The position numbers and the translations under genes are program-made. From positions 2,723,260 through 2,787,259 of the forward strand of contig CBDBHA010000002.1 in NCBI GenBank assembly GCA_965205495.1: 64,000 nucleotides of DNA. The letters are read 5' to 3'. Source of the stretch: Dehalococcoidia bacterium. Lineage in GTDB: Bacteria; Chloroflexota; Dehalococcoidia; Lucifugimonadales; UBA3495. Every line of letters begins with the position of its first letter. The stretch's first letter is position 1. A model generated the notes under the pieces. That model worked only from the letters and a program-made list of their open reading frames with translations. It was not told the DNA's origin and did no database searches. Of this stretch, positions 3,529 to 38,397 are shown one piece after another.

Positions 3529-3651
3529 AAAGCTCCCTGGCGAGGGTCAATTGGGTCTGGAACACAACTCCCGGCCCGGAAAAGCCAATGTACTTTAGAA
3601 ACGCGATTTGAGTCAACGCCGCATCGTCAACGTAAGTGTTCAGAGTCAAGG

Positions 3652-10670: not shown

Positions 10671-10725
10671 AGGGATTGGGAGGGGGTCATCCTTGGACCA
10701 GGTTTGCAATTGCTAAGGCATTGAA

Positions 10726-11106
10726 TTGTTCAGGGACCACGAGTCAGCCTATTTAATAGCATCCGTTACCCTCGTGTGGCTCTTGACCGGCGCGGGGATC
10801 TGGTATGAGATTGATTACAAGGATATCGATTCTCCGGTAGAAACCGTTGCTGCGATTCTTGGATGGGTTAGTTCCGCGATTGCGGTAACGGTCTTGATTC
10901 TCGCCACGGTGGAGGTAGCCATGATATTTGCGGAAAGATACCGGGCCAGGCGTTTTGAAGAAGGCCGGAAAGAAGGCCGCGAAGAAGGCCGGAAGAATCA
11001 GAATGCGCTATGGAGCGCATGGCTCAAGCGTCGCGACGCGGCCCTCGCCAACAACGAGGAATTTAACGAGCCTCCGCCCTCGGCTGGGGAATCGCGGCAA
11101 TCATAA
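10726..11106 (+). CDS. small two-helix membrane protein, paralog of 167..550
   Basis: Two hydrophobic helices are followed by FAERYRARRFEEGRKEGREEGRK. The start codon is uncertain; TTG is taken from the track. Confidence 0.45.
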   Translation: MFRDHESAYLIASVTLVWLLTGAGIWYEIDYKDIDSPVETVAAILGWVSSAIAVTVLILATVEVAMIFAERYRARRFEEGRKEGREEGRKNQNALWSAWLKRRDAALANNEEFNEPPPSAGESRQS

Positions 11107-11122
11107 GCAGGATGAGCCGCAG
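10883..11122. repeat. direct repeat copy A' (3' part of 10726..11106 plus downstream)
   Basis: Aligns by eye with 11213..11487 at an offset of about 330 bp. Copy B' carries an approximately 35-nt expansion in the K/E-rich part. Confidence 0.8.
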
Positions 11123-11212
11123 CGGGAGCGACAGGGCGGCCCGGGTGAAACCGCCCACCGCGAACGGTGTGACCGGCCCCTAGCCCTTCTTCCCGAGCCT
11201 GTCGAAAGGCGG

Positions 11213-11487
11213 CGGCAACGGTCTTGATTCTCGCCACGGTGGAGGTAGCCATGATATTTGCGGAAAGGTACCGGGCCAGGCGTTTTGAAGAGGGCCGCAA
11301 GAAGGGCCTGGAAGAAGCACGGAAGGAGCTCCGGGAGGAAGGCCGGAAGGAAGGCGGAAGGAGCGGGATGCGCTATGGAGCGCATGGCTCAAGCGTCGCG
11401 ACGCGGCCCTCGCCAACAACGAGGAATTTAACGAGCCTCCGCCCTCGGCTGGGGAATCCCAGCAATCATAAGCAGGATGAGCCGCAG
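11213..11487. repeat. direct repeat copy B' (degenerate partial duplicate of the gene 3' end)
   Basis: It reads ...LILATVEVAMIFAERYRARRFEEGRKKG... and then goes out of frame relative to the parent tail. It accounts for the artefactual N-terminus of track ORF 11224..11853. Confidence 0.8.
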
Positions 11488-11547
11488 CAACCCCGAGTCA
11501 AAACTCCCACCGCCAACATTCACTACCAATACTCACGGAGGAAAGCA

Positions 11548-11853
11548 ATGGTCTACCAACTACGCATTTACACCATAAACCGGGGCATGATGGACTCTTG
11601 GCTCAAGGTTTTCAACGAGCACATCCGCCCGCTGCACGACCGCTTGGGAATTCCGGTCCAGAACTCCTGGGTCAACGCCGACCGCACCGAGTTCATCTGG
11701 GTCCGCCGCTTCAACAACTCCGACGAGATTCCGGTCAAAGAGGCCGAATTTTTCGCCTCGCCGGAGCGCACCGCTCTCGCCGACATCCCCACCAGCCACA
11801 TCGCCAAGATGGAAGTGCGGGTAATCGAGGGCGTCGAGGCCGCTGCGGCTTAG
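11548..11853 (+). CDS. NIPSNAP family protein
   Basis: MVYQLRIYTINRGMMDSWLKVFNEHIRPLH... The ATG at 11548 is preceded by GGAGGA. Confidence 0.75.
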   Translation: MVYQLRIYTINRGMMDSWLKVFNEHIRPLHDRLGIPVQNSWVNADRTEFIWVRRFNNSDEIPVKEAEFFASPERTALADIPTSHIAKMEVRVIEGVEAAAA

Positions 11854-11890
11854 ATTACCCCGGCGGGCGGAAGAACCCCTGGGTGAGAAA

Positions 11891-12367
11891 TTACCCGCGG
11901 TTGGCGTCCGGGGCGGGGGCAAAACGTTCCTGGTACCGCTCGGTGATGGCGGCCTCGGCCCGCTTGCTGTGCTCGGCAATGAACTGCTCCAGCCGCTTAA
12001 TCTCCCCCAGCGTCTCCTGGTCTTCCCCGTTGGAGACAATCTGGCGCTTGAGCCGGGACAGGTTGCTCTTGGCCTCATCCACCTGCTGCACCGACTCCAG
12101 GGCGGCCAGCTCGTCCAGGGCCGCCTGTTTCACCGTCAACAGCCTCCGATGAACCGAAAGGGCGTCGTTCAACCGCTCTTCAATCTCCCCCATGGCCGAC
12201 AATGATAGGTCCAGAGGAGTGCTGCCGTAGACCACCTGCCGGGGCAGCCGCCGCAACTGGGTGCGGAACTGGCTAATCATAGATTCCAGTTGCTGCTCTT
12301 TATTGCGAATTTCTGCCAGACTCAGGCGCAGAGTAGCCATCGTCTGCTGTAGCTGGGACATCGACAT
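11891..12367 (-). CDS. hypothetical coiled-coil protein
   Basis: 158-aa ORF with heptad-like, Q/E/L/R-rich composition. No family was recognised. Confidence 0.5.
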   Translation of the reverse strand: MSMSQLQQTMATLRLSLAEIRNKEQQLESMISQFRTQLRRLPRQVVYGSTPLDLSLSAMGEIEERLNDALSVHRRLLTVKQAALDELAALESVQQVDEAKSNLSRLKRQIVSNGEDQETLGEIKRLEQFIAEHSKRAEAAITERYQERFAPAPDANRG

Positions 12368-12414
12368 CAGCTATACCTCACCCCATCATCGTATGGTCTC
12401 TCGGTGGGCCCCAA

Positions 12415-12490
12415 CCCGCTCGTGGTGAGCTTGTCCGACCACCCTTGGCAAGCTGTCCGACCCTTCGTGGTGAGCCTGTCCAACCACAAC
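12415..12490. repeat. short tandem copies of the cgtggtgagc(c/t)tgtcc(g/a)accac repeat family
   Basis: Two to three copies are present. Related units occur at 41961-42228, 44106-44135 (inverted) and 59765-59785. Confidence 0.7.
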
Positions 12491-12501
12491 CGGTCTGCTC
12501 C

Positions 12502-13611
12502 TTAACCCGCGCTGAAACCCACCTGGGGCAGGACACGTTTCAGGGCCTCGATTACCTCTTCAATGTCTTCCCGGCTGACCCAACCCAGGTGGCCGATGCG
12601 GAAAATCTGGCCCACCAGCTTGCCCTGCCCCCCCGCCAAAACCACGTCTTCTTCGTTGCGCATCAGGCTCATCATGCGGGCACCGTCAATATTCTCCGGC
12701 ATCTTGATGGCGGTTACGGTGTCCGAGGCGCGGGCCGGATCGGCGCAGAAAAGCTCCAGCCCCAGATCCGTAACCGCCTCCCGGGTGTATTGGCCGATGT
12801 CGTGGTGGCGGGCGAAGATATTTTCGATTCCCTCGTCGGTCATCTTGTCCAGGGCCAGACGCAGTCCGTAGATGGCCGAAAGGTTGGGAGTCCAGGGCGT
12901 CTGGCCGCTCTCCAGGTAGTGCTTGGCCTCGCCGACATCGAAGTAGAACCGGGGCATGGTGGCAGTTTCGTGGGCCTGCCAGGCGTCCCCGCTCACGCTG
13001 ATGAAAGCCAGCCCCGGCGGGATCATGAACCCTTTTTGCGACGCGGTCCCCACCATGTCGCACTTCCAGCCGTCCACCGGCAGGGGCACGCAACCCAGGC
13101 TGCTCACCGCGTCCACCAGGATGAGCTTGCCGAACTCGTCTTTGACCACCCGGGCCATGTTCTCCAGGTCGTGGGTCACGCCGGTCGAGGTCTCGTTGTG
13201 GGTGATCATCACCGCCTTGATGTCCGGGTCCTGGTTCAACTCGCGGCGGATTAGGTCCGGGTCAATGGCCTCGCCCCACTCCACTTCGACGCGCTTAAGA
13301 TCGGCGTAGTAAGCGTCGGCGATGTCGCAGAAACGGTCGCCGAAGGCGCCGGCGGAGACGCCCAGCACCTTATCCCCGGGGGACAGCACGTTCACCAGCG
13401 CCGCCTCCAGCGAGCCGGTGCCCGAGGAGGTGAGGATGAAGGTGTCGTTTTGGGTCATAAAGACCTGCTTCAGCTTTTCGGTGGCCCCGGTAATCAGCTC
13501 CAGGAACTCCGGGCCCCGGTGGTTGATCATGGGTTCCCCCATGATTTCCACGATGTCCGGCGGTATCGGGGTGGGTCCTGGAGTCCGAAGGTTCTGCCTG
13601 GGGAATCTCAC
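12502..13611 (-). CDS. class V aminotransferase (alanine-glyoxylate/serine-pyruvate type)
   Basis: 369 aa with RTPGPTPIPPDI at the N-terminus and TASQKGFMIPPGLAF (PLP-lysine context). Confidence 0.85.
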   Translation of the reverse strand: MRFPRQNLRTPGPTPIPPDIVEIMGEPMINHRGPEFLELITGATEKLKQVFMTQNDTFILTSSGTGSLEAALVNVLSPGDKVLGVSAGAFGDRFCDIADAYYADLKRVEVEWGEAIDPDLIRRELNQDPDIKAVMITHNETSTGVTHDLENMARVVKDEFGKLILVDAVSSLGCVPLPVDGWKCDMVGTASQKGFMIPPGLAFISVSGDAWQAHETATMPRFYFDVGEAKHYLESGQTPWTPNLSAIYGLRLALDKMTDEGIENIFARHHDIGQYTREAVTDLGLELFCADPARASDTVTAIKMPENIDGARMMSLMRNEEDVVLAGGQGKLVGQIFRIGHLGWVSREDIEEVIEALKRVLPQVGFSAG

Positions 13612-25465: not shown

Positions 25466-26566
25466 CTATTCCTGGATCAACGGCAACTGCTCTTCGGGTA
25501 CGGCTGTAGCAATCTGGAAGGCATCAGGGTTGAACCGGTACGCCCGGGTCCGGGTCTTTCCTTCCACCAGCAAAACTCCCGCTTCAACCAGGGCCGCCAG
25601 GTCGCGCGACGCCGTCGCGGGCGACACCCCGGTGATTTCCATATAGTCCGAGCGGGTCATCCTCCCCGCCTGCCGGACAAAGGCAATTCCATCAACGTGA
25701 CGCGCCGAAAACCCTTTTCCCTCGAACAGGCTCCGCCCTTCCTCTATCATGCGGTGCCAATCGGAGAGTGTCGCCGCTAAGTCCTCCGCCTCCCAGTTCA
25801 GTTCTTGAAGGAAAAACCCCAACCAAGGGGTTGCGTCATACCCGCTATCGAAACGTTCCCCGAGAGTCCGCTCCAAGATGCCGAAATACTCATCCCGGTC
25901 TTTAAACAAACGGGACTCCAAAGACACCAGTTTCCGGAAGCCATACAACGACCGTTGCAGCAACAGGGAGGAAAGGCCCCGCGCCGTCCGTCCATTACCG
26001 TCCCAGAAGGGATGTACCGCCACCAAGTGCAGGTGGGCAATCCCAGCCTTCACGGCCTGGTGCATTCCGGTCTCTTCCCGCAGCCAAACGGCGAACTCCC
26101 GCATCAAGACCGGCACATCCCCCTGGCCGGGCGGACTGAACTGTCCAACCGTGTTCTGGCCCCGGCGGTATACACCGGGGGTCAGCATTTCCGAAGCGCC
26201 GTACATGAACTTGCGGTTCAGTTCCCGAATCACCAATTCATCAATGGGAATGTCCGGCTGGTCACTCAGGTAGTCGATGAATTGGTACGCCTCCAAGGCG
26301 TTGATGTTCGCCTGTTCGTCTGCGGTGTATCGGCCCGTCACGCGCCGCCCGACCAGTTCTGCCACCGCGCTTTCATCGAGGGCGGCTCCCTCGATCCTGG
26401 TGGTGCCGGAGGCCCGCTTGACCGCGATTTCCCGTTGCAGCCAAATTTCATGGCGGGGCATCAAAAGCCGGTTATCGATCAACCAGCGTTGCCGCTCCAA
26501 GTCCTGAACCAACCCTTGGATATGCCCGGTTAGCTCGAAATTCGGGGCGAAGATACTATCATTCAT
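25466..26566 (-). CDS. Fic family protein (class II-like, with C-terminal wHTH)
   Basis: HPFWDGNGRTARGL is the Fic motif. The N-terminal TTRIEG fits the inhibitory (S/T)xxxE(G/N) motif. The C-terminal ITGVSPATASRDLAALVEAGVL is HTH-like. Confidence 0.9.
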   Translation of the reverse strand: MNDSIFAPNFELTGHIQGLVQDLERQRWLIDNRLLMPRHEIWLQREIAVKRASGTTRIEGAALDESAVAELVGRRVTGRYTADEQANINALEAYQFIDYLSDQPDIPIDELVIRELNRKFMYGASEMLTPGVYRRGQNTVGQFSPPGQGDVPVLMREFAVWLREETGMHQAVKAGIAHLHLVAVHPFWDGNGRTARGLSSLLLQRSLYGFRKLVSLESRLFKDRDEYFGILERTLGERFDSGYDATPWLGFFLQELNWEAEDLAATLSDWHRMIEEGRSLFEGKGFSARHVDGIAFVRQAGRMTRSDYMEITGVSPATASRDLAALVEAGVLLVEGKTRTRAYRFNPDAFQIATAVPEEQLPLIQE

Positions 26567-26989: not shown

Positions 26990-27053
26990 CTCCCAATTCC
27001 CCAGGCCCGCCGCCTCGTTGGAAAAACTCATCTGCTGCGGGGGAGTTATTCAA

Positions 27054-28271
27054 ATGCCCGGCCCAATCACCTTCATCGATGACGGCGCCGTTACCACGCC
27101 CCAGGGCTTCTCCGCCGGGGCCACCTACGCTGGGCTCAAGACCTACTCCGAAGACAAGCTCGACCTGGGCCTCATCGTCTCCGACCTCCCCTGCGTCGCC
27201 GCCGGCGTCTTCACCACCAGCGCCATCAAGTCCTCCACCGTCACCGTTAACCGCGAAAACCTGGCCCAGAGCCTTTCCCGGGCCATCATCGTCAACGCGG
27301 GCATCGCCAACACCTCCGTGGGGCGGCAGGGGTACATCGACGCCCAGGAAATGACATCCCTGGCCGCCCGCAAAATCGGCGCCCAACCCAACGAAGTCCT
27401 GGTTTGCAGCACCGGCGTCATCGGCGTCGAACTCCCCATGTCCCTCATCCGCACCGGCGTCGACGTTATCCAGCTTTCCCCCGGCGGAGGCCATGACGTA
27501 GCCAGGGCCATGATGACCACCGACACCCGCCCCAAGGAAGTGGCGGTGTCCTTTGGAATCGAAGGGCGCCAGGTCCATTTGGGTGGCGTGGCCAAGGGGT
27601 CGGGGATGATTCACCCCAACATGGCCACCATGCTTTCTTTCATCACCACCGACGCCGCCGTGGAAGCCAACTTCCTTCAGGACACCCTGCGCGAAGTGGC
27701 CGACTCGTCCCTGAACATGCTGTCGGTGGACGGCGACACCAGCACCAACGACACGGTGCTGGTCCTGGCCAACGGCATGGCCGGCAACACCCCCATATCC
27801 GCCGGATCTCCCGAAGCCGATACCTTCCGGCAGGCCCTCCTGGAGACGTGCATCTACCTCACCCGGGAGTTGGCCCGGGACGGCGAAGGGGCGTCTCATC
27901 TGATAACCGTCGAAGTCAGCGGGGCCGCGACGCTGGACGACGCCCGCAAGGCGGCCCGCACCATATCCGCCTCCAACCTGGTCAAGTCGGCGGTCTACGG
28001 CGCCGACCCCAACTGGGGCCGGATTCTCATGGCCGTGGGACGCAGCGGAGCCGCCGCCGCCGAAAGCAAGATTGACCTGTTCGTCAACGGGGTGTGCATC
28101 ATGGAGGCCGGCAGTCCGGTGCCCTTCCACCGGGACGCGGTGGTGGCCCTGATGCGGCAACCCGAAGTGTCGATTCGGGTAAACCTCAACCTTGGCCCCG
28201 GCGAGGCCACCGCCTGGGGCTGCGACCTGACCCAGGAATACGTCATCATCAACAGCGCCTACACCACCTAA
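27054..28271 (+). CDS. argJ: bifunctional ornithine acetyltransferase/N-acetylglutamate synthase
   Basis: ATMLSFITTDA is the autoproteolysis site, and TNDT is present. The ORF extends to 27018. The antisense ORF 26796..28313 is an artefact. Confidence 0.95.
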   Translation: MPGPITFIDDGAVTTPQGFSAGATYAGLKTYSEDKLDLGLIVSDLPCVAAGVFTTSAIKSSTVTVNRENLAQSLSRAIIVNAGIANTSVGRQGYIDAQEMTSLAARKIGAQPNEVLVCSTGVIGVELPMSLIRTGVDVIQLSPGGGHDVARAMMTTDTRPKEVAVSFGIEGRQVHLGGVAKGSGMIHPNMATMLSFITTDAAVEANFLQDTLREVADSSLNMLSVDGDTSTNDTVLVLANGMAGNTPISAGSPEADTFRQALLETCIYLTRELARDGEGASHLITVEVSGAATLDDARKAARTISASNLVKSAVYGADPNWGRILMAVGRSGAAAAESKIDLFVNGVCIMEAGSPVPFHRDAVVALMRQPEVSIRVNLNLGPGEATAWGCDLTQEYVIINSAYTT

Positions 28272-28341: not shown

Positions 28342-29145
28342 TTGGAGGAGAGAGTGTCGGGCCCACCGATAGTCGTTAAAATCGGGGGCAGCACCCTGGG
28401 CAGCCACGATACCAGCCTCAAAGACCTGGTTACCCTGCAACAACAGGGGCAAAACGTGGTGGTGGTGCACGGCGGCGGCAACGTCATCTCCGACTGGATG
28501 CAGCGTCAGGGCATTCCGCCCCGCTTTGTCAACGGCCTCCGCGTCACCGACGCCCCCAGCCTGGACATCGTGGTCGCGGTGCTCACCGGCCTCATCAACA
28601 AGGAACTGGTCTGTATGCTCCACAATCTGGGCGGACGGGCCGTGGGCATCAGCGGCATCGACGGCGGTATCCTGGAAGCCTACATCGCCAACCCGGACCT
28701 GGGGTTCGTGGGCGAGATTACCCAGGTCAACCCCGCCCCCCTGCAAGCCCTGAGCGACAGCGGGTTCATCCCCATGATGGCCCCCCTGGCCATGCACCGT
28801 CACGACGGCACCGGCCACGCCGGCAAACCGCTGAACATCAACGGTGACACCGTAGCCGGAGCGGTTGCCCGGGCACTGGGGGCGGAACGCCTCATCTTCC
28901 TCACCGACGTCCCCGGGATAATGGACGGCAACGGGAGAGTCATCCCCCACCTCGACCTGCGGCGGGCCAGCATCCTCCGCCGTTCCCCGGTCATCAGCGG
29001 CGGCATGATTCCCAAGCTGGACGCCTGCCTGCTCGCCCTGGAGCAGGTGCCCCAGGCCGACATCGTCGACGGCACCCAGCCCGATATGCTGCTCAACTGC
29101 CTCAACGGTTCCGCATCCGGCACCCGGATCGTCGCCGCCCTCTAG
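28342..29145 (+). CDS. argB: acetylglutamate kinase
   Basis: IVVKIGGS and VVVHGGG motifs. An alternative GTG start lies at 28354, after GGAGGAG. Confidence 0.95.
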   Translation: MEERVSGPPIVVKIGGSTLGSHDTSLKDLVTLQQQGQNVVVVHGGGNVISDWMQRQGIPPRFVNGLRVTDAPSLDIVVAVLTGLINKELVCMLHNLGGRAVGISGIDGGILEAYIANPDLGFVGEITQVNPAPLQALSDSGFIPMMAPLAMHRHDGTGHAGKPLNINGDTVAGAVARALGAERLIFLTDVPGIMDGNGRVIPHLDLRRASILRRSPVISGGMIPKLDACLLALEQVPQADIVDGTQPDMLLNCLNGSASGTRIVAAL

Positions 29146-29367
29146 CCCCGCCGTAGAACCAGGTCCGCGGGTGGGGTGGCCCTACATCCCCGAACGAGCG
29201 GAATCGCCAATGATTGTGCATTTCATTGTGTTCCTCGAAACTCACGTTAGGCAGCCCAGCGGCGGTAGACTTGGGATTGCAGGGAGGGCGGAGGGTGATT
29301 AGACTATTTGGCAACCGGACTACAACAGACGCCAGCGCAGGATAACCGCAGCGAAGGACAGCAGATC

Positions 29368-30504
29368 ATGTCCACTGAACAACGTGAAGATAACCTTCAC
29401 CTTCCGAGCCTTTCAATAAGGGGCTTCAGGGGGATTGGAGACCTGTCCATACCTAAATTGGCCCGCGTAACGTTAATTGCGGGGATGAATGATACCGGCA
29501 AAACCTCAATCCTTGAAGGAGTCCGCCTGCTCATGGAAGGAGCAACCCCTGAGGTGATAGGCGAAATATTGCAGTTCCGAGAACAGGATACCGAGGCATT
29601 TTCTAACGATGGGGAAAGTCCCAGCAGCGAGACTTTCCTCCTGTCCGCACTTTTCCACGGGTTTCCGCAACTTTCGGAGTGCTCGGACCCAATTGTGATC
29701 TCATGCGGCGATAACTCCCATCAAATACATTTGCAGGTAGGCTGGTTCTCGGAAATAATCGAGGAGGACGGCAGCACTAGATTAATTCCTGCTGAAACGG
29801 ACCCCCCTGGGGAACACGCCAATATACCGGCATTGATCGTTACAACCGGGAAAAACAGAAGAGTCTACAATTTTGGGCGAATTGATAGATTCGCTTCCAC
29901 CCGTCGCGCTCGCTTTCGTTCCAACCAGCGCCGAGTGTCCTCCCGGCTCGTCAATGCTTCTGGACAAGATCGGACGGCAATGCTGGGACCCTTATGGGAC
30001 AACATCTCGATAACTGAACAGGAACCGCATGTTGTGGAAGCGTTGCGAATCATAGACCCGCAGATTTCTGCTGTTTCGATGGTTGGCGAACAATCTTTGA
30101 GTTCTGCCAGGACAGCCGTGGTACGCTCCGACAACTTTGGTCGGCGGGTGCCGCTCCACTCATTCGGGGATGGCATGAATCGGCTTTTCGGCATAATTTT
30201 ATCACTCGTCAACGTCGACGGCGGAGTTCTTTTGATTGATGAGTTCGAGAATGGTATGCATTATACGGTGCAGCTCGATGTGTGGCGTATGGTATTTCGG
30301 CTGGCGGAAGACCTCAACGTGCAAGTCCTAGCAACTACGCACAGTTTGGACTGCGTGGCAGGCTTCAGACAGGCTGCTGCTGAACGAGAAAAAACCGAAG
30401 GGCTTCTTTTACGTATAGACCGAATAGGTGACCGAATGCGGGCCGTGGAATACACCGAGGAAGACCTCCGCATCGCCATTGCCCAACGGATTGAAATAAG
30501 GTAA
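29368..30504 (+). CDS. ABC/OLD-type AAA ATPase (AAA_15/AAA_21-like)
   Basis: Walker A is GMNDTGKTS, Walker B is VLLIDEFENGMH, and LATTHS is present. G+C is about 50%. The ORF extends to 29308. Confidence 0.8.
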   Translation: MSTEQREDNLHLPSLSIRGFRGIGDLSIPKLARVTLIAGMNDTGKTSILEGVRLLMEGATPEVIGEILQFREQDTEAFSNDGESPSSETFLLSALFHGFPQLSECSDPIVISCGDNSHQIHLQVGWFSEIIEEDGSTRLIPAETDPPGEHANIPALIVTTGKNRRVYNFGRIDRFASTRRARFRSNQRRVSSRLVNASGQDRTAMLGPLWDNISITEQEPHVVEALRIIDPQISAVSMVGEQSLSSARTAVVRSDNFGRRVPLHSFGDGMNRLFGIILSLVNVDGGVLLIDEFENGMHYTVQLDVWRMVFRLAEDLNVQVLATTHSLDCVAGFRQAAAEREKTEGLLLRIDRIGDRMRAVEYTEEDLRIAIAQRIEIR

Positions 30505-30506
30505 CG

Positions 30507-31193
30507 GTGGTCTCCCCCGAGAGCCTGGTGACAACTAATCGCATTCTCCTTGTGGAAGGGCAAGACGACAAACACTTCGTTTGGCAATTTTGCGGGCAAC
30601 ACCCCTCAACATTTTCAATTGCAAGGTTAGAATATGAGATGCGCGTGACCTTGAACGGTCACATGTCGACCTTCCTAATCTCTGACAAAGGCAACCAGAG
30701 CGAACTGATTAGTTCTATCCGCCAAGAGGTCGTAGTTGCAGGGCGTCAGACCTTGGGTATCGTCGTTGATACCGACGACGACGTTGAGGATTGCTGGGAC
30801 AGGATAAAGCAAGAATTATCCCGGGAAAAGGTTCAAACCCCTCTCACCCCTAGCCAAAACGGTACGATAATACCGGAGCAAACCTTCCAGCCCCGCGTGG
30901 GCATTTGGTTGATGCCGGATAATGGGTCTAAAGGAGAACTTGAGGATTTCGTCGCCAAGATGATTCCCGGTAATGACCCGGTATGGCCGTTATCCCGGGG
31001 TTACATCAATCAAATCAATGCCGGAGATAGGAAATTCCCTGTGGACAAGACCCAGAAAGCCGAACTTTATTCCTGGCTGGCCGCCAGAAAGGAACCCAGC
31101 CGAATGGGAGCAGCCGTCGGCGCCGGAGACTTGGATGTTAATGGCTACCCCTGTAAGGAATTCCTCGCCTGGCTCATCCAACTGTTCGGTTAG
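30507..31193 (+). CDS. stand-alone TOPRIM-like protein (DUF4435/DUF3226/DUF4276-type partner of the ATPase)
   Basis: The GTG lies 2 nt after the ATPase stop. Motifs are ILLVEGQDDKHF (conserved Glu), GIVVDTDDDVED (DxD) and GIWLMPDNGSKGELEDF. Confidence 0.65.
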   Translation: MVSPESLVTTNRILLVEGQDDKHFVWQFCGQHPSTFSIARLEYEMRVTLNGHMSTFLISDKGNQSELISSIRQEVVVAGRQTLGIVVDTDDDVEDCWDRIKQELSREKVQTPLTPSQNGTIIPEQTFQPRVGIWLMPDNGSKGELEDFVAKMIPGNDPVWPLSRGYINQINAGDRKFPVDKTQKAELYSWLAARKEPSRMGAAVGAGDLDVNGYPCKEFLAWLIQLFG

Positions 31194-31385
31194 TGTGCCT
31201 TTCGGTTCCATCCACTGACCTCGTTCCTCCCGTTTTAATCCGCCTGCCGAGACTCTCCCAAGATCACGCCTCCATCCGTTTTATCCCACACTCCCAAACG
31301 AGAACCCGTGCGGCGTCCAACACCTAAATTCCTGCGGCGTTACCCCTTCATGGACAATTCCAAAATGCAGGCATTTTCCGCAACC

Positions 31386-31394
31386 TGTTAGAAT
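31386..31394 (+). promoter_or_regulatory. extended -10 (TGTTAGAAT) placed for a leaderless UPF0182 mRNA
   Basis: TAGAAT at 31389-31394 is followed by 6 nt (cccccc) and then the ATG at 31401. There is no SD. Confidence 0.5.
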
Positions 31395-31400
31395 CCCCCC

Positions 31401-34163
31401 ATGAGCTACGACCTCAGCAACGACGCCGAAGGTTCGGCCACCGTCCTGCCCGGCATCTCCGCCCTTCACCTGCGCCGCTTAATCCGCTTCACCGCCATCC
31501 TGCTGGCCCTGGCGTTGACCCTTCTCCTGCTCTGGTGGGGCATTGGCATCTACACCAACGTCCTCTGGTTCAGTCACCTGGGTTTCCTCGGAGTCTTCAC
31601 CAAAATCGCCCTGGCCAAGGCAGGACTGTTCGCGGGCGGGACCATTCTGTCCGGCGCCCTTCTCGGCGCAAACTTTTACCTGGCCGCTCGTTTGTCCCGC
31701 GGCCCCTCGACCCTGCCCATCACCGCCGAATCCCTCCGGCTGATGTATGCCGTGGCCGGCGCCGTGGCAATTTTGACCGTTCTCATATCCGCCCCCATCT
31801 TTGGCTCCGCCGCCGCCGCCCGCTGGGAGCCGCTGCTGCTGCTTTTCAACTACGTGCCTTTTCAGGTGGCCGACCCCGCCTTCGGAAGGGACGTTTCCTT
31901 CTACGTGGTCGTCCTCCCCCTGCTCAACCTGGTCCAGGGCTGGCTGATGGGCTTGATAATCACCGCCCTCGCGGCCTCGCTGGCCCTTTACGTGGCAATC
32001 TTCAGCCTGCGGGGCGTCAACCTGCTGATCAGCCCCCGTATGCTGAAACACCTGGCCTACCTGGGCGCCTTCCTCATGCTGACCCTGGCCTTCCAGCACG
32101 TCCTGAACATCTACGAGCTTGTCCTCTCCTCCGGGGTCGCCGTCGTCTACGGGGCAACCTATACCGACATCAAAGCCCGCATCCCGGTGCTATGGTTCCT
32201 CACCGTCATCGCCCTGCTGGCGGCGGTGGGCTTGGGCATAAGCCCATTCTATAGGGGCCTGCGCCTCGTCTTCGGTTCCTTCAGCCTCTGGGTGGTCATG
32301 GCGCTGCTGGCGGGGTTGGCCTTTCCCGCCCTGTTCCAGCGGTTTCAGGTCTCTCCCAACCTGTTCACCCGGGAGGAACCCTACATTCGCAACAACATCC
32401 TGGCCACCCGCGCCGCCTATCAACTGGACCAAATCCAGGAACGCCCCTACGCTGCTGACGGCCGGCTGGACCAGGCCGCCATCGACGAGAACCAGAACAC
32501 GGTGGAAAACATCCGCCTCTGGGAACCGTCCCCTTTGAAGGACGTCTACAACCAGCTCCAATTTATCAACCTGTATTACAACTTCCTTAACATGGACTCC
32601 GACCGCTACCGGGTGGACGGCGAACTGACGCAGGTCCTGGTGGCGGCCCGCGAGCTGAACCCGGATACTCTGTCCCAAGACCAAAACTGGGTTAACAGCC
32701 GGCTCCAATACACTCACGGCTATGGCGTCGCCATGAGCCCCGTCACCGGCTTTACCCCGGGAGAGGGGCGGCCCGAGTTCTTGATCCGCGACATCCCCAT
32801 CCAGAGCGAACTCCCGGTCTCCCTCCCCGAAATTTACTACGGCGAGTCGCCTGCAACATTCGCCATCGTCAACACCAGCTTGCGGGAAGTGAACCCCGAC
32901 CCCGAATATACCGGCTACGCCGGCTCCGGCGGAATCCACCTGGACTCCACCCTGCGGCGCCTGGCCTTCGCCATCCAACTGGCCGACATCAACGTGCTGC
33001 TCAGCGACCGCATCGAGCCCCACAGCCGGTTGCAATACCGCCGTCAGATAAAAGAACGGGTCCGGACCCTGGCCCCCTTCCTGAAACTGGACCGGGACCC
33101 CTATCCGGTGCTGGACTCTCAGGGCAAGCTCTGGTGGATTCTGGACACTTACACCACCACCACCCGCTACCCCTATTCCACTCCCTTCCAACCGCCCGAC
33201 GACAACCCGCCCTTCAACTACATCCGCAACAGCGTCAAGGTGACCATCGACCCCTACAACGGCGATGTCGTGTTCTATGTCATCGACCCGCAAGACCCCC
33301 TCACCCAGATGTACCGCCGAGCCTTTCCCGCCTTGTTCCAGGACGGTTCCGAAATGCCCGCCGACCTGCGGGAGCACTGGCGCTATCCCAACGGCATCTT
33401 CTCCACCCAGGCCCAGCTTTACCTCCGTTACCACGTCACCGACCCCCAGGTGTTTTTCAACGGGGCGGAGCAATGGGCCATCCCCCTGGAGACCAGCATC
33501 GCCAAGCCCGGCCTGGCCGTGGTGCCCTCCTACCTGATCCTCCAGCTCCCCGGCCGGCAACGGGAAGAGTTCGTGCTGCTCTTGCCTCTAACTCCCGCCA
33601 GCGGGAAGAAAAACCTGGTGGCTTGGCTGGCCGCCCGCAGCGACCCACCCAACTACGGCCAGGTGCTCAGCTTTCATCTGCCCGAACACCGGCAGATCGA
33701 CGGCCCCAACCAGGTGGAGGCCCGCATCGAAAACGACCAGTCGGTTTCCCAGCAATTCACCCTCTGGGGGGCGGGCTCGGGCTCCGATATTATCCGGGGG
33801 CAAGTGCTGGTAATTCCCATCGCCGATACGATAATCTACGTTGAACCTCTGTATCTCCAATCGTCCGCCTTGGCCTTTCCTGAGCTAAAAAAGGTTATAC
33901 TAGCCGACGGCAACAACCTGGTTATGGCCGACACCATCCAGGAAGGAATCACCAGGCTGGTCGAAGCCGCCTCCCCCCGCGATGGACCCTTGCCGCAACT
34001 GCAACAGTTGGACGAGCAGGTCAACGAATTGCAAGAGTCATTGGACCAACTGGAACGAGGATTATCCCAACTGAGAGAAGCGCTTCAGGGGGATTTGTCC
34101 CCCAAAACGCCGGAGGGTACGGGGGAGTTACCCCCTGATGAAAAAGAAGGAGGAACCCCATGA
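31401..34163 (+). CDS. UPF0182 family integral membrane protein
   Basis: 920 aa. It has an N-terminal block of about 7 hydrophobic helices, a large soluble region, and a C-terminal ...IIYVEPLYLQSS...FPELKKVILA. The stop overlaps the argD ATG (ATGA). Confidence 0.8.
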   Translation: MSYDLSNDAEGSATVLPGISALHLRRLIRFTAILLALALTLLLLWWGIGIYTNVLWFSHLGFLGVFTKIALAKAGLFAGGTILSGALLGANFYLAARLSRGPSTLPITAESLRLMYAVAGAVAILTVLISAPIFGSAAAARWEPLLLLFNYVPFQVADPAFGRDVSFYVVVLPLLNLVQGWLMGLIITALAASLALYVAIFSLRGVNLLISPRMLKHLAYLGAFLMLTLAFQHVLNIYELVLSSGVAVVYGATYTDIKARIPVLWFLTVIALLAAVGLGISPFYRGLRLVFGSFSLWVVMALLAGLAFPALFQRFQVSPNLFTREEPYIRNNILATRAAYQLDQIQERPYAADGRLDQAAIDENQNTVENIRLWEPSPLKDVYNQLQFINLYYNFLNMDSDRYRVDGELTQVLVAARELNPDTLSQDQNWVNSRLQYTHGYGVAMSPVTGFTPGEGRPEFLIRDIPIQSELPVSLPEIYYGESPATFAIVNTSLREVNPDPEYTGYAGSGGIHLDSTLRRLAFAIQLADINVLLSDRIEPHSRLQYRRQIKERVRTLAPFLKLDRDPYPVLDSQGKLWWILDTYTTTTRYPYSTPFQPPDDNPPFNYIRNSVKVTIDPYNGDVVFYVIDPQDPLTQMYRRAFPALFQDGSEMPADLREHWRYPNGIFSTQAQLYLRYHVTDPQVFFNGAEQWAIPLETSIAKPGLAVVPSYLILQLPGRQREEFVLLLPLTPASGKKNLVAWLAARSDPPNYGQVLSFHLPEHRQIDGPNQVEARIENDQSVSQQFTLWGAGSGSDIIRGQVLVIPIADTIIYVEPLYLQSSALAFPELKKVILADGNNLVMADTIQEGITRLVEAASPRDGPLPQLQQLDEQVNELQESLDQLERGLSQLREALQGDLSPKTPEGTGELPPDEKEGGTP

Positions 34164-35350
34164 CCAAGAGCGAAGAGTGGATCGCTATCGAACAGAAATA
34201 CTACGCCCAGACGGTCCGCCGCCAGCCGGTGGTCATCGTCAAGGGTGAGGGCACCCGGGTCTGGGATGCCGACGGCAAGGAATATCTGGACTTTGTGGCC
34301 GGCTGGGCCGTCGACAACCTGGGACACTGCCATCCCGTCATCACCCAGGCCATCGTCGAGCAGGCCGGCACCCTGCTCCAGACCTCCAACCAATTCTTCA
34401 CCGTCCCCCAGCTCCAACTGGCCGAGCTCCTGGTCGAAAATAGCTGCCTCGACCGGGTCTTTTTCGGCAACAGCGGCGCCGAGGCCAACGAGGGCGCATT
34501 GAAGCTGGCTAAGCGGTACGGCAAGCTGCACCGGGACGGGGCCTACGAGGTCATTACCGCCTTCAATTCCTTCCACGGCCGCACCGCCACCACCGTCGCC
34601 GCCACCGGCCAACCCCACTACCAGGAGGCTTTCCTGCCCCTGCAACCCGGCTTCGTCCACGTCGACTTCAACGACGTTGAAGCCATCATGAACGCCACCA
34701 CCGACCAAACCGCCGCGGTGATGCTGGAGCCGGTGCAGGGCGAGGGCGGCGTCAACATCCCCGACGACGACTATCTGGTCCGCGTCCGGCAGTGGTGCGA
34801 CCAGAACAACCTGCTGCTGATTCTCGACGAGGTCCAGACCGGACTGGGACGCCTGGGCAGCCTGTTTGGATACCAGGAATACAACGTGGAGCCCGACGTT
34901 ATGACCCTGGCCAAGGGCCTGGGCTACGGCGTCCCCATCGGCGCTTTCATGTCCAAGGAAGCGGCAATGGCCCTGGTCCCCGGCGACCACGGCTCGACCT
35001 TCGGCGGCAACGCCCTGACCACCGCCGCCGCCTACGCCGGCACCAAGTTCCTTATCGACAATGACATCCCGGCCCACGTCAAGGATATGGAGACCCACCT
35101 GATGGACCGCCTCAACGGCCTCAAGGCCCGTTTCTCCTTTATTACCGACGTCCGGGGCAAGGGACTCCTCACCGCCATGGAATTCGACGGCGATATCTCC
35201 GGGCAGGTGCTGACCAACGCCAACGAAGCCGGGATTTTGCTCAACGGCGTCCGCCCCAACGCGGTCCGCTTCATGCCCCCCCTCACCGTCACCGCCGAGG
35301 AGATTGACGAGGCCGTCGGTCGCCTGGAAAACGCCCTGGCAAAGGTTTAA
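34160..35350 (+). CDS. argD: acetylornithine aminotransferase
   Basis: 396 aa, a class III aminotransferase (FGNSGAEANEGALKLA, DEVQTGLGRLG, TLAKGLG). AAGGAGG SD. Confidence 0.9.
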   Translation: MTKSEEWIAIEQKYYAQTVRRQPVVIVKGEGTRVWDADGKEYLDFVAGWAVDNLGHCHPVITQAIVEQAGTLLQTSNQFFTVPQLQLAELLVENSCLDRVFFGNSGAEANEGALKLAKRYGKLHRDGAYEVITAFNSFHGRTATTVAATGQPHYQEAFLPLQPGFVHVDFNDVEAIMNATTDQTAAVMLEPVQGEGGVNIPDDDYLVRVRQWCDQNNLLLILDEVQTGLGRLGSLFGYQEYNVEPDVMTLAKGLGYGVPIGAFMSKEAAMALVPGDHGSTFGGNALTTAAAYAGTKFLIDNDIPAHVKDMETHLMDRLNGLKARFSFITDVRGKGLLTAMEFDGDISGQVLTNANEAGILLNGVRPNAVRFMPPLTVTAEEIDEAVGRLENALAKV

Positions 35351-35390
35351 CCTTCGCCGTCAAGTTGTGGGAGGAGCAAGCCGCAAAATC

Positions 35391-35624
35391 ATGAGTCTGG
35401 TAATTTCCGATGATTTGCTGCGTATCGCCGGCCTGTCTGAAGAGGAGCTTCGGGAAGAGATTGCCGTCTTGCTTTTCCAGCAAGAGAGACTAACCTTGGG
35501 GCAAGCGAGCCGGCTGGCCCGAACCAGCCAAGCTGAGTTTCTTCGGGTATTGGGCCACCGCCAGATACCGGTCCACTACGGCGTTACCGAGTTCCAAGAG
35601 GACTTGAAGACGCTGCAAGGATAA
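35391..35624 (+). CDS. UPF0175 family antitoxin-like protein
   Basis: MSLVISDDLLRIAGLSEEELREEIAVLLFQQERLTLGQASRLA is typical UPF0175. The ORF in the track starts at 35304. Confidence 0.7.
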   Translation: MSLVISDDLLRIAGLSEEELREEIAVLLFQQERLTLGQASRLARTSQAEFLRVLGHRQIPVHYGVTEFQEDLKTLQG

Positions 35625-35632
35625 CCATTGGT

Positions 35633-35713
35633 TTGGTCGTTGTGAGCGATGCTTCCCCGATCATTAGTTTGGCGTCCACAGGGCAAAAAGGTATGGAAAT
35701 TTGGAACGCATAA
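35633..35713 (+). pseudogene. truncated DUF3368-type PIN toxin (first approximately 20 codons only)
   Basis: It reads LVVVSDASPIISLASTGQK and then diverges, with a stop at 35711-35713. It overlaps the start of the next gene. Confidence 0.5.
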
Positions 35714-35931
35714 TCATTGATCCCAAGGTAATGGTGGGCAAGCCGGTTATTCGGGGGACCAGGATGACCGTTCAGTTCATCCTGGGAATGCTCGCCCATG
35801 GCTCAACTATCGAAGACATTATTGGCGAATACCAGGACCTGACCCGCGGAGACGTGCTGGCCTGTATCGGTTTCGCCAAGGAAGCCCTCGAAAACACCGA
35901 CTTTATTCCTTTGGCGGTCGAGAGCCAATAA
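35701..35931 (+). CDS. DUF433 family protein (antitoxin-like)
   Basis: IIIDPKVMVGKPVIRGTRMTVQFIL...GEYQDLTRGDVLACIGFA is typical DUF433. Confidence 0.8.
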   Translation: MERIIIDPKVMVGKPVIRGTRMTVQFILGMLAHGSTIEDIIGEYQDLTRGDVLACIGFAKEALENTDFIPLAVESQ

Positions 35932-36291
35932 ATTCGCTTTCTTGTAGACGAATGCGCTGGCCCCACCGTCGCAATGTGGCTAGTTGAACTTCAACATGAC
36001 GTCCGTTCGATTCATCAAGTCGCCCGTGGCTCGGACGACGACAAGGTTCTGCAAATGGCGATCGATGAGAACCGTATTTTGATCACTTGTGACAAAGACT
36101 TTGGTGAAATGGTCTTCCGAGAACGAAAGAACCACAATGGGGTGGTGTTGCTGAGGTTAGATGATGAACGCGCCGATAATAAAATCGCGGTCCTCAGCAG
36201 GTTGCTAGAACAATACCCCGACCGGCTAGCCAACAACTTCGTCGTAGCAACCGAAGCTGGGGTCCGCATCGCCGGCCTGGGGGGCAGGTAA
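35932..36291 (+). CDS. DUF5615 (Mut7-C/PIN-like) family protein
   Basis: IRFLVDECAG...ILITCDKDFG. The conserved N-terminal LVDE lies upstream of the first ATG (35974), so a non-ATG start (ATT 35932) directly after the DUF433 stop is implied. Confidence 0.7.
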   Translation: MRFLVDECAGPTVAMWLVELQHDVRSIHQVARGSDDDKVLQMAIDENRILITCDKDFGEMVFRERKNHNGVVLLRLDDERADNKIAVLSRLLEQYPDRLANNFVVATEAGVRIAGLGGR

Positions 36292-36356
36292 GCCGGAAAC
36301 CAGGGAAGCGGTCCGCAATATTGACTTTTCCAGCAAAAGGAGTAAACGAAAAGGTA

Positions 36357-37544
36357 ATGTCAGTAGATAAAATAGTCCTCGCCTTCAGCGGCGGGCTGGA
36401 TACCTCGGTGGCCGTCCCCTGGCTCAAGGAACAGTACGGCGCCGAAATCATCACCTTGACCATGGACCTCGGCATGGTGGACCTGGATGCCATCCGCAGC
36501 CGTGCCCTCGCCGTGGGCGCGTCCAAGGCCCTGACCATCGACGCCCAGGACACCCTGGTTGAAGAGTTCATCTTCCCCACCCTCCAAGCCGGCGCCATCT
36601 ACGAAGGGGCCTACCCCCTCGCCACCGCCCTGGGCCGCCCCCTCATCGCCCGCTGCCTCGCCCAAGCCGCCCTCACCGAAGGGGCCTCCGCCGTGGCCCA
36701 CGGCTGCACCGGCAAGGGCAACGACCAGGTGCGTATCGACGTTGGCGTCGCCGCCCTGGCCCCCGGGGTCCGCGTAATCGCCCCCATCCGCGACTGGGGC
36801 ATGTCCCGTGAAGACGAACTGGACTACGCCCGGGAGCGCAACCTCCCCATCAGCCCCAGCCGCAGCCGCTTCTCGACGGACGAAAACCTCTGGGGCCGCA
36901 GCGCCGAGGCCGGCGAGTTGGAAGACCCCAACCTGGAACCGCCGGAAGAAGCCTTCGAGTGGACCAAGCCGGTCAACGAAACACCCTCCGGCCCAACCTA
37001 CCTGGAAATCCACTTTGAACAGGGCATACCCACCGCCGTCGACGGCGCGGCCATGAACGGCGCGGCCCTCATCCGCCACCTCAACACCATCGCCGGCGAA
37101 AATGGCGTGGGCCGCATCGACCACGTTGAAAACCGGCTGGTGGGCATCAAGTCGCGTGAAATCTACGAGGCCCCCGCCGCCGTGCTGCTCCACGCCGCCC
37201 ACCAGTCCCTGGAGGCCATGACCCTCAGCAAAGACCAAGCCAGGACCAAGGCCCGCCTCGCCCAGGAATACGCCGACATCGTCTACAACGGCCTCTGGTT
37301 CACCACCCACCGCCAGGACCTGGACGCCTACGTTCAGAGCACCCAGCGTTACGTCACCGGCGACATCCGGGTGCGCCTGCACCGTGGCGCCTGCACCGTG
37401 GTCGGCCGCCAGGCTCCCCAGGCTCTCTACCAACACCAACTGGCAACCTACGACCGGGGCGACGAGTTCGACCACTCCGCCGCCGAGGGCTTCATCTCCA
37501 TCTACGGCCTGCCCGTCCGCATCCAAAACCGGGTCCAGCCCTAA
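36357..37544 (+). CDS. argG: argininosuccinate synthase
   Basis: MSVDKIVLAFSGGLDTS. The ORF extends to 36321. The antisense ORF 36360..37526 is an artefact. Confidence 0.95.
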   Translation: MSVDKIVLAFSGGLDTSVAVPWLKEQYGAEIITLTMDLGMVDLDAIRSRALAVGASKALTIDAQDTLVEEFIFPTLQAGAIYEGAYPLATALGRPLIARCLAQAALTEGASAVAHGCTGKGNDQVRIDVGVAALAPGVRVIAPIRDWGMSREDELDYARERNLPISPSRSRFSTDENLWGRSAEAGELEDPNLEPPEEAFEWTKPVNETPSGPTYLEIHFEQGIPTAVDGAAMNGAALIRHLNTIAGENGVGRIDHVENRLVGIKSREIYEAPAAVLLHAAHQSLEAMTLSKDQARTKARLAQEYADIVYNGLWFTTHRQDLDAYVQSTQRYVTGDIRVRLHRGACTVVGRQAPQALYQHQLATYDRGDEFDHSAAEGFISIYGLPVRIQNRVQP

Positions 37545-37572: not shown

Positions 37573-38397
37573 GTGAATGAACGAGGTCCAACCCCAATGA
37601 CCACCCCCGCAACCCAACCCGCTTACCTGCTAGCCGCCCTGCAACGGGTCATCGAAGGGCTCAAGGCTTGTCGGCCCGAGCAGATAGTCCTCTTCGGGTC
37701 GCTGGCCCGCGGCGACGCCGGGGAAGGCAGCGACATCGACCTCATAGTCATCAAAGATACTGACCTGCCCCGCCACGACCGCGCGAGGGAATGCACAGAC
37801 CTCCTTCCCGCCCATCTGGGCGTGGGAGTGGACATCATCGTCTACACCACCCATGAAGTGGCAAGGATGATTGAACGGCGCAACCCCTTCCTGGCCGCGG
37901 CCTTCACCGACGGCGTGGTAGTCTACGACCGCAACCCCGCCCCCGGACCCCCTTCCCTAAAGTCCCGGCTCAAGGAACCGACAATGGAATCGCGTCTACG
38001 CAACGGGCACGTCTGGCTGGACTCCGCCGCAGACGACTTGAGAGTAAGCCGTGTGGTGTTCAATGCGGGCTTCGCTAACTTCGCCTGCTTCCACGCCCAG
38101 CAGGCCACCGAAAAATCCCTCAAAGCTTTCCTCATCTACTGCGGCTTTATCCTGGAACGCTCCCATTCGGTGGATGAATTGGCCCAAAGGTGCGCCGCGC
38201 AGGACCCCGATTCCGTTGCCATTGCCGACGATGCCCACACCGTAACCGGTTTTTACCTGGACACCCGTTACGCTACCAATGACAATGGTTTCATCCTGAT
38301 TCAGTACGACCTCTCCCAAGCGGAGGTCGCGTTGGAAGCCGCCGACAAGGTCTTCACTTTCGTCCTGTCTAGGATTCCGCCCCGCCCCCAGGAATAG
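37573..38397 (+). CDS. fused nucleotidyltransferase (MNT) - HEPN domain protein
   Basis: LFGSLARGDAGEGSDIDLIVI (GSxxRGx..DxD NTase) is followed by FHAQQATEKSLKAFL...ERSHSVDEL...LDTRY (HEPN). An alternative start lies at ATG 37597. Confidence 0.8.
   Translation: MNERGPTPMTTPATQPAYLLAALQRVIEGLKACRPEQIVLFGSLARGDAGEGSDIDLIVIKDTDLPRHDRARECTDLLPAHLGVGVDIIVYTTHEVARMIERRNPFLAAAFTDGVVVYDRNPAPGPPSLKSRLKEPTMESRLRNGHVWLDSAADDLRVSRVVFNAGFANFACFHAQQATEKSLKAFLIYCGFILERSHSVDELAQRCAAQDPDSVAIADDAHTVTGFYLDTRYATNDNGFILIQYDLSQAEVALEAADKVFTFVLSRIPPRPQE

Follow-up and report, generated by a model that had tools for sequence, protein, structure and literature searches.

A candidate defence pair of an ABC-type ATPase and a DUF3226 protein inserted in the arginine operon of a Dehalococcoidia bacterium

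Two adjacent genes, here called A and B, lie within an arginine gene cluster of a Dehalococcoidia bacterium (contig CBDBHA010000002.1). A encodes an ATP-binding cassette (ABC)-type ATPase and B a DUF3226 protein, and together they match PDC-M38, a catalogued but uncharacterized candidate defence system. All coordinates are numbered in the 64,000-nt stretch of this contig that was analysed, referred to as the window. The gene order is DUF1015, Fic/DOC-HTH (helix-turn-helix), argJ, argB, A, B, UPF0182, an argD-type aminotransferase, a UPF0175/DUF433/DUF5615 trio and argG, with A and B co-oriented with the arg array (Table 1). A first-pass annotation made from the letters alone had described an ATPase gene and a stand-alone TOPRIM-like gene wedged into the arginine cluster. 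Both open reading frames (ORFs) and their 2-nt junction were found as it described, and the pair does lie in the arginine cluster, between argB and UPF0182, with argJ upstream and argD-like and argG genes downstream. The motifs that it quoted can all be read in the translated sequences, A having GMNDTGKTS, LLIDEFENGMH and TTHS, and B having LLVEGQDDKHF, IVVDTDDDVED and WLMPDNGSKGELEDF. Its G+C estimate of about 50%, against about 68% in argJ, is roughly right, the measured values being 0.51–0.53 over 29250–31250 compared with 0.62–0.67 in argJ/argB and 0.60–0.64 downstream.

Table 1. Coordinates of the A–B pair, its junctions and the adjacent genes in the 64,000-nt window.
Feature	Position	Strand	Description
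Gene A	29368..30504	+	378 aa from ATG; ABC-type (SMC/Rad50/PtuA-like) ATPase; predicted sensor or scaffold
Gene B	30507..31193	+	228 aa from GTG; DUF3226; predicted metal-dependent nuclease effector
A/B junction	30502..30509	+	TAA, 2 nt, GTG; read from sequence
Left junction	29146..29367	+	Variable intergenic region, argB stop to A start
Shine-Dalgarno-like AAGGA	29354-29358	+	9 nt 5' of A ATG
Right junction	31194..31400	+	Intergenic region up to UPF0182
Putative allele-replacement tract vs L157/L158	~29150..30878	+	Left intergenic region, all of A, B residues ~1-124
argJ	27018-28271		
argB	28342-29145		
UPF0182	31401-34163		
argD-like aminotransferase	34160-35350		
argG	36321-37544		

Both genes differ from their public calls. 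For A, the public call has 398 residues (P0274) and begins at a TTG at 29308, adding 20 residues. ATG 29368 is the better start, because the closest homologues are 378 residues long, similarity to the related locus L027 begins there, and an AAGGA lies 9 nt upstream; the stretch AAGGACAGCA...ATGTCC is kept between the window and L027. For B, the public call has 184 residues (P0001) and starts at M45, with loss of the LLVEG glutamate, and GTG 30507 is the right start because homologues of 226–230 residues cover the B N-terminus. Both public starts look wrong on the evidence of homologue lengths, which favour 378 residues for A and 228 for B, and the 184-residue truncation of B is a gene-calling artefact. 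Since this call drops the putative catalytic glutamate, the automated annotation of the source genome hides the nuclease motif. The gap between the A stop and the B start is 1–5 nt in 53 of 62 related loci; the spacing seen in the window, 2 nt, is thus usual for this family, and the junction suggests translational coupling of the two genes.

Protein A scores above the Pfam cut-offs for AAA_15 (E 5.7e-19) and AAA_21 (E 3.7e-18). Against PADLOC-DB it matches PDC-M38A (PDLC04611; E 3.5e-84, residues 12–378 on profile positions 2–383 of 383) and AbiLi (PDLC02336; E 7.8e-53, residues 14–378 on positions 4–340 of 340), while matches to the AriA models cover residues 184–329 only (E 2.4e-22 and 2.1e-18) and that to HEC-01A is weaker (E 2.9e-13). 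The sequence contains Walker A (G39-x4-G44 K45 T46), a signature-like segment (S265-x-G267-x-G269-x2-R272), Walker B (D291 E292) and an H-loop (H325), and the residues of all four motifs are invariant or nearly so in 59–74 homologues. An AlphaFold2 model of A (pLDDT 80.5, pTM 0.83) gave 253 Foldseek matches at E ≤ 1e-3, among them PtuA of Septu and retrons, the heads of SMC and cohesin, Rad50, and GajA of Gabija (E 5e-13 to 1e-10). The earlier assignment of A as an ABC-type ATPase is thus borne out by both Pfam and the predicted fold, and A is an intact, compact ABC ATPase of a kind that recurs as sensor or scaffold in defence systems.

RecR is a TOPRIM protein, the N-terminus of A gives weak matches to RecF, SMC_N and Rad50 models, and its predicted fold resembles SMC and Rad50 heads, all of which would suit a RecF/RecR-like or SMC-like housekeeping pair that repairs or maintains host DNA. 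We regard this explanation as very improbable. In the NCBIfam scan, B had no match whatever and all scores of A fell far short of the cut-offs, that for RecF being 26 bits against a cut-off of 172; the distribution and allelic variation of the pair, described below, point away from housekeeping as well.

Protein B is a clear, full-length member of DUF3226 (PF11536; E 5.3e-47; 160.7 bits, where the cut-off is 27; residues 12–227 on profile positions 2–207 of 208). Its only PADLOC-DB match is PDC-M38B (PDLC04624; E 6.6e-36, residues 7–227 on positions 9–218 of 220), and neither the Pfam nor the PADLOC scan found a match of B to AriB/DUF4435 at E ≤ 1. The first-pass annotation had been unable to separate DUF4435, DUF3226 and DUF4276 by eye and had allowed for an undescribed variant; profile searches place B in one of these families, and the idea of an undescribed variant is dropped.

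The pair is, with high confidence, a member of PDC-M38, an ABC ATPase with a DUF3226 partner, and the earlier description as a candidate defence pair agrees with this catalogue match. PDC-M38 is one of 145 phage defence candidates predicted by guilt-by-embedding in BREX, DISARM and type I restriction–modification (R-M) loci (Payne et al., bioRxiv 10.1101/2024.01.29.577857). Its listed cassettes are FAM_01405>>FAM_00135 and FAM_00005>>FAM_00745, and the FAM_00005 ATPase also occurs in HEC-01 (supplementary table, bioRxiv 10.1101/2024.01.29.577857). Like PDC-M38, the window pair consists of adjacent, co-oriented genes whose products match the A and B models over their full length, and related loci sometimes lie inside R-M-type systems. 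No defining feature sets it apart, although the window copy sits in a biosynthetic operon and not inside an R-M, BREX or DISARM locus. PDC-M38 itself is a catalogue entry without named domains or mechanism. The pair is therefore a new copy of a catalogued but uncharacterized system, to which we add a TOPRIM link for DUF3226, corrected gene starts, and evidence from empty sites and an allele swap.

The TOPRIM link comes from the predicted architecture of B, its conservation pattern and profile comparisons. The AlphaFold2 model of B is very confident (pLDDT 94.5, pTM 0.90) and predicts a TOPRIM-like N-terminal core at residues ~10–140, followed by a helical C-terminal region. Its secondary structure elements follow the TOPRIM order: a strand (12–16) ending in E17-G18, a helix (19–30), a strand (54–60), a helix (64–75), a strand (82–88) ending in D88-x-D90, a helix (93–105) and a strand (130–136), before the helical C-terminus. 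The glutamate of LLVEG thus lies at the end of strand 1, as in the hhhVEG signature of TOPRIM proteins. The hairpin at 36–49 is an insertion, because it is missing from homologues of ~206 residues. Candidate catalytic residues are E17, D21, D88, D90, D138/N139 and E146. In an alignment of 128 sequences (A7), conservation is 127/128 for E17, 124/128 for G18, 120/128 for D21, 127/128 for D88, 127/128 for N139 and 128/128 for E146.

Profile comparisons point in the same direction. Among 56 family members scanned against Pfam, the commonest match after DUF3226 was OLD-like_TOPRIM (PF20469; 18 of 56, best E 0.016), followed by DUF4276 (three members) and DUF4435 (one member). The PADLOC scan of the same 56 returned HEC-01B (12 members, best E 2e-4), AbiLii (three, 9e-4), AriB (two) and GajA (two), the AriB/DUF4435 matches occurring in one or two members at E 0.005–0.04. 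The meaningful secondary PADLOC matches are all TOPRIM partners of ABC ATPases. Alignment of the family profile with phage P2 Old by hhalign placed B residues 9–90 on the Old TOPRIM region at 390–455 (E 3.7e-4, probability 36%), and the E-value had improved from 0.007 as the profile was deepened. In an hmmsearch of 177,635 PDB sequences with the deep A7 profile, AriB came top (E 0.083); the LLVEGxxD alignment, spanning AriB residues 17–64, puts B E17 on AriB E26. Mutation of this residue (E26A) renders AriB catalytically dead (PMC11464382, PMC12409363). The PF20469, P2 Old and AriB matches, all sub-threshold, converge on one motif region. The comparison used single P2 Old and PDB sequences, a homologue search with the P2 Old C-terminus having returned five fragments and a tblastn search against plasmids none.

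Several results weigh against this assignment. Foldseek searches of the B model against PDB and BFVD returned no significant TOPRIM structure (TM-scores 0.2–0.3), only generic alpha/beta proteins (Arf/Ras GTPases, MTAN and peptidyl-tRNA hydrolase) that gave no usable structural assignment, so that structural similarity to a solved TOPRIM domain was not found. Every profile link from the B family to TOPRIM families lies below curated thresholds, and phmmer and hmmsearch comparisons of B and a shallower alignment (A1) with PDB sequences gave nothing relevant. Position 90 of the DxD motif is Asp in the window but Asp in only 71 and Asn in 56 of the 128 sequences. The TOPRIM claim of the first-pass annotation stands in part: the acidic signatures and weak profile links to OLD, AriB, AbiLii and HEC-01B favour it, and in the structure prediction, which it had named as a possible refutation, a Foldseek TOPRIM match is lacking despite a pLDDT of 94.5. 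This is the weakest link of our interpretation, a convergence of individually weak lines of evidence, and on balance we consider B very likely to be a TOPRIM protein. Its metal site may differ from the canonical one, position 90 often being Asn while E17, D88 and E146 are essentially invariant.

If so, the pair would join a supergroup of ABC ATPases with split TOPRIM nucleases that comprises PARIS, AbiL, RloAB and HEC-01 and, as fusions, OLD and Gabija. PARIS (AriA/AriB; class 4 OLD-like) has the same split organization, an ABC ATPase of AAA_15/21 type with a stand-alone TOPRIM protein (PMC11464382, PMC12409363), and A and B of the window family generally co-diverge, as AriA and AriB do. However, window A matches AriA over the C-terminal third only and has 378 residues compared with 55 kDa for AriA, and window B has no AriB/DUF4435 match at E ≤ 1 and has 228 residues compared with 35 kDa for AriB. 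The partner domains reported in the PARIS survey of Burman et al. are PF20469, PF14491, PF13707 and PF14103, and DUF3226 is not among them (PMC11464382, PMC12409363).

AbiL of Lactococcus (AbiLi/AbiLii) combines an ABC ATPase with a TOPRIM/OLD-like protein (PMC13064643), and window A matches AbiLi over its full length. Window B has no AbiLii match, which among the DUF3226 members is limited to the three noted above, and the second component therefore belongs to a different family. For HEC-01, a Hma-embedded candidate that pairs an ABC ATPase with a TOPRIM protein, the B component is the commonest secondary PADLOC match of DUF3226 members; however, window A matches HEC-01A weakly and window B has no HEC-01B match. 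OLD and Gabija GajA (classes 1–2) contain the same two catalytic modules, and the A fold matches the GajA ATPase. There the ATPase and TOPRIM modules are fused, whereas here they form two ORFs split by a TAA and are separate in all 80 related loci examined for context. The pair also lacks a helicase partner such as GajB, and none of the PF20469 matches attains the Pfam threshold. By these comparisons the pair is a member of PDC-M38 and not of PARIS, AbiL, HEC-01 or OLD/Gabija.

Comparison with relatives indicates that A and B were inserted into the arg array. Of the 80 related genome loci, only L027, from a Dehalococcoidia metagenome-assembled genome (MAG), shares the arg context of the window; the other 79 lack it. 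A metagenome scan with the window ArgB yielded 70 loci, and in six of these (L085, L088, L089, L090, L092 and L093; ArgB 69–80% identical) argB is followed by UPF0182 after 33–190 nt, with no A–B. In more distant relatives argB abuts argD. Because six relatives have this empty site, A–B is an insertion into an ancestral argJ-argB-(UPF0182)-argD-argG array. The last ~40 nt of the right junction, including a -10-like TAGAAT at 31389–31394, are kept in empty-site relatives. The first-pass proposal of horizontal acquisition is supported by the empty sites, by the low G+C and by the scatter of the family over many phyla. These same features, together with the occurrence of relatives on plasmids and a prophage-like contig, argue against a housekeeping repair pair.

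A different possibility is that the pair is a decaying, non-functional remnant of an insertion, or a functional part of arginine metabolism. The public B call of only 184 residues would fit decay, and four related genomes have the pair in synteny at their arg locus, as would be expected of an arginine gene. However, both ORFs are full length relative to their homologues, with all predicted catalytic motifs intact, and most related pairs are found away from arg genes while the six empty-site relatives do without the pair. Homologue lengths, the arg context counts and the empty sites have largely refuted this alternative, which is the least probable of those considered here. The arg context counts and the empty sites also reject the idea of a conserved component of the arg locus. 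The synteny that the first-pass annotation had named as a possible refutation does exist in the closest clade, where the pair occupies the arg locus as a hypervariable allele and not as a core arg gene.

In the window, the search for direct or inverted repeats flanking the pair gave nothing convincing, and no tRNA (within 9 kb), Rfam family, integrase, transposase or other mobility gene that would explain the insertion was found; the promoter and terminator scan gave unremarkable consensus matches only, inside genes. In contigs L157 and L158, a ~95-bp copy of the UPF0182 promoter-like region and the first ~75 nt of its coding sequence lies right after the argB stop (L157 3757–3845, L158 6648–6736). 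The copied region corresponds to 31381–31466 in the window, so that in L157 and L158 the target is repeated directly on either side of the A–B module. The copy is a footprint left when the module first inserted into the 5' end of UPF0182; the left flank of the window has no such copy.

The same contigs carry the closest relatives of window B (P0002 and P0003, 68–69% identical), at the same site. Flanking genes are nearly identical to those of the window (ArgJ 96%, ArgB 99%, UPF0182 96%, ArgD 98%, ArgG 96–97%), and amino acid identity within the pair is 38–39% for A, 50–53% for the N-terminal half of B and 87% for its C-terminal half. Just after the argB stop, at ~29150, identity to L158 falls from ~97% to 30–48%, and it recovers at B residue ~125, just before PRVGIWLMPDN. 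In 60-nt windows, DNA identity to L158 is 0.97–0.98 before ~29140, 0.20–0.75 over 29140–30878 and 0.83–0.98 from 30879. Window A is closest (67–69%) to ATPases whose B partners are 52–56% identical to window B. A third allele occupies the site in L027 (A 37%, B 46%), where the arg genes are 89–94% identical. At least three very different alleles thus occupy one chromosomal slot among related genomes, and the pattern of identity indicates that the difference between the window and L157/L158 is a recombination tract with a breakpoint inside B. A alleles that are 38% identical between genomes with 96–99% identical flanking genes are a further argument against host DNA repair. The extreme divergence of A, and its exchange together with the putative TOPRIM half of B, would fit a sensor under diversifying pressure.

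Across 64 modules, divergence of A correlates with that of both halves of B (Mantel r 0.61 for the N-terminal and 0.57 for the C-terminal half, p 0.001). A family-wide covariation of A specifically with the N-terminal half of B was considered and rejected, given these similar coefficients and a single discordant pair. The A–B swap is a single event and not a general rule of shuffling, because the window and L157 form the only strongly discordant pair of the 64.

Relatives of B were found at more than 518 loci in a scan of a genome collection, from which the 80 context loci were taken. Their hosts include Dehalococcoidia, other Chloroflexota, Binatia, Nitrospirales, Latescibacterota, Acidobacteriota, Rhodothermales, Spirochaetia, and Alpha- and Gammaproteobacteria. 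An exhaustive search gave 3,857 DUF3226 clusters at 50% identity (E ≤ 1e-3) among 1.84 billion. In 80/80 loci the gene directly upstream of B, separate from it and on the same strand, is an A homologue, and other neighbouring gene families are each found at no more than 10 of the 80. Many of the B-encoding genomes are MAGs named as if from marine sponge or coral (APA_bin, SB0664_bin, Plut_, Entotheonella, and likewise RHO1_bin of 'Candidatus Palauibacter rhopaloidicola'), and a single large series of long-read MAGs contributed many; judging from names only, the family may be enriched in sponge and coral symbiont communities.

Distant DUF3226–ATPase pairs (~24% identity) are present on small Acinetobacter, Klebsiella and Citrobacter plasmids. 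On the Acinetobacter plasmids L082 and L083 (NZ_CP035939.1 and NZ_CP038011.1; 9.7–13.8 kb) the pair lies next to rep genes, tet(39) or BrnT/BrnA, and the L083 ATPase is annotated as two fragments and may be disrupted. On the Plesiomonas megaplasmid NZ_CP027853.1 (L084, 6865–8609) the pair lies downstream of P2-like tape-measure, gpX and gpD-like tail genes, and on L155 (IMGVR_UViG_3300046458_000053, 2402–4141) it adjoins baseplate and tail-fibre genes. Such locations beside tail and baseplate genes suggest prophage cargo positions.

Some relatives lie directly beside or inside R-M loci of type IIG, type I and DUF499 type. In L016, L047 and L064 a type IIG enzyme ends ~10–430 nt from A; in L019 and L032 a large methylase-like gene flanks the pair on one side and a HEPN_Swt1-DUF499 ATPase on the other; and in L007 and L051 type I hsdMS/hsdR genes follow B. 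Through these direct R-M juxtapositions, the embedding pattern behind the PDC-M38 prediction is independently reproduced. Defence genes (type IIG R-M/DrmMI, HmaB, MADS, NsnB, NYN and Fic) make up a minority of the 127 nearest neighbours. Of the defence-island association that the first-pass annotation had proposed to check, the direct embedding at some loci is favourable, and the placement of many others, the window included, among housekeeping genes is not.

Further observations count against a role in defence. The genes nearest to the pair in the 80 loci mostly belong to ordinary metabolism, many of them encoding oxidoreductases, and the at least 28 of 80 loci with a recurrent R-M or toxin–antitoxin (TA)-type family within 10 kb are a raw count without background control. 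Only two weak relatives were found in 2.9 million viral contigs (IMG/VR), and none in the GenBank phage collection. A literature search returned no text mention of DUF3226, PF11536 or PDC-M38 and no experiment on any member, and HEC-01 gave no protection in one reported screen (bioRxiv 10.1101/2024.01.29.577857). The sensing step, the target of B and an A–B complex, as set out below, are argued purely from analogy.

The main competing explanation is a selfish TA or addiction module, in which B would be a toxic nuclease and A its antitoxin, and which would persist through post-segregational killing, or as a hitch-hiker in an essential operon, without a role dedicated to phage defence. The very small plasmids with a pair near rep genes and BrnT/BrnA are in keeping with it, as are the many loci without nearby defence genes and the other TA-like cassettes of the window arg operon (UPF0175/DUF433/DUF5615, MNT-HEPN and Fic). 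PARIS itself behaves as a type II TA system, but since PARIS is both, an addiction module does not exclude defence. An ATP-driven, 378-residue ABC ATPase would be unusually elaborate as an antitoxin, and the embedding in R-M loci and the sensor-like hypervariability of A point to phage-driven selection. A purely selfish role is therefore unlikely in our judgement, though it deserves more weight than repair, decay or arginine metabolism.

We consider it probable, by analogy with the characterized systems, that the pair is a self-contained, horizontally acquired PARIS- or AbiL-like sensor-plus-nuclease module of abortive infection belonging to PDC-M38. In PARIS, an AriA hexamer sequesters AriB, and ATP-dependent recognition of phage proteins such as Ocr frees AriB, which then dimerises and cleaves tRNA-Lys (PMC11464382, PMC12409363). 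In the corresponding scheme, A would oligomerise and keep B inactive. With the help of ATP it would detect either a trigger encoded by the phage or a signal that restriction, or another first-line defence, has been disabled, and would then release or activate B. B, as a two-metal TOPRIM nuclease, would cut an essential nucleic acid and thereby halt both the infected cell and the phage. This nucleic acid could be tRNA, the kind of target that AriB has, or DNA, which OLD and GajA attack. We lean only modestly towards a PARIS-like mechanism of this kind.

The neighbourhood of the pair shows additional variation. The UPF0182 stop overlaps the argD start (34160–34163). A -10-like TAGAAT lies only 6 nt 5' of the UPF0182 ATG and is kept, as TAAAAT or TAGAAT, in L027 and in the empty-site locus L085; L088 and L092 cannot be aligned there. 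This suggests that the UPF0182 transcript may be leaderless. UPF0182 diverges more than its arg neighbours (68% compared with 89–94% in L027, at 10691–13534, and 54–59% compared with 69–85% in L085, L088 and L092) and is absent from more distant arg clusters, and it is either an older insertion or a fast-evolving operon gene.

Between DUF1015 and argJ, a Fic/DOC gene with a winged-HTH domain (25466–26566, minus strand) is absent from the near-conspecific L157 and L158; homology to L158 ends at 25444 and starts again at 26760, and a Fic gene is at the same place in the more distant L085 and L092. The slot between argD and argG holds the TA-like UPF0175, DUF433 and DUF5615 cassette (35304–36291, G+C ~0.52) in the window, UPF0175, DUF3368 and a HicB-like gene in L157, and UPF0175, DUF3368, DUF433 and DUF5615 in L158. 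The window seems to have lost DUF3368 from this slot, and in L088, L089 and L093 argD and argG are ~40 nt apart. Directly after argG, an ORF at 37573–38397 encodes a fused nucleotidyltransferase–HEPN protein (MNT-HEPN type), which is called as two genes in L158 and as one in L157. In this clade, four separate small insertions of a TA- or defence-like kind are thus present in the arg operon; the Fic gene is on the opposite strand, and the other three are co-oriented with the arg genes.

We also put forward, as a tentative idea to which we give somewhat less than an even chance, that DUF3226/PDC-M38 is a distinct functional branch of split ABC-ATPase/TOPRIM immunity, with its own trigger and a target other than the tRNA-Lys of AriB. 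The unit of specificity would be the ATPase together with the TOPRIM core, exchanged by recombination between near-identical genomes at a fixed slot in an essential biosynthetic operon. If this is true, uncultured Dehalococcoidia would hold a natural "allele library" of sensors. The locus is an unusually clean natural experiment, and suggests which parts of A and B must stay matched. No literature on DUF3226 was found, yet the family comprises ~3,900 clusters at 50% identity, and its partner is always an AbiLi-like ABC ATPase. The proposed link to the TOPRIM effectors of PARIS, AbiL and OLD would supply this PADLOC candidate with a concrete mechanism that can be tested and with residues to target by mutagenesis.

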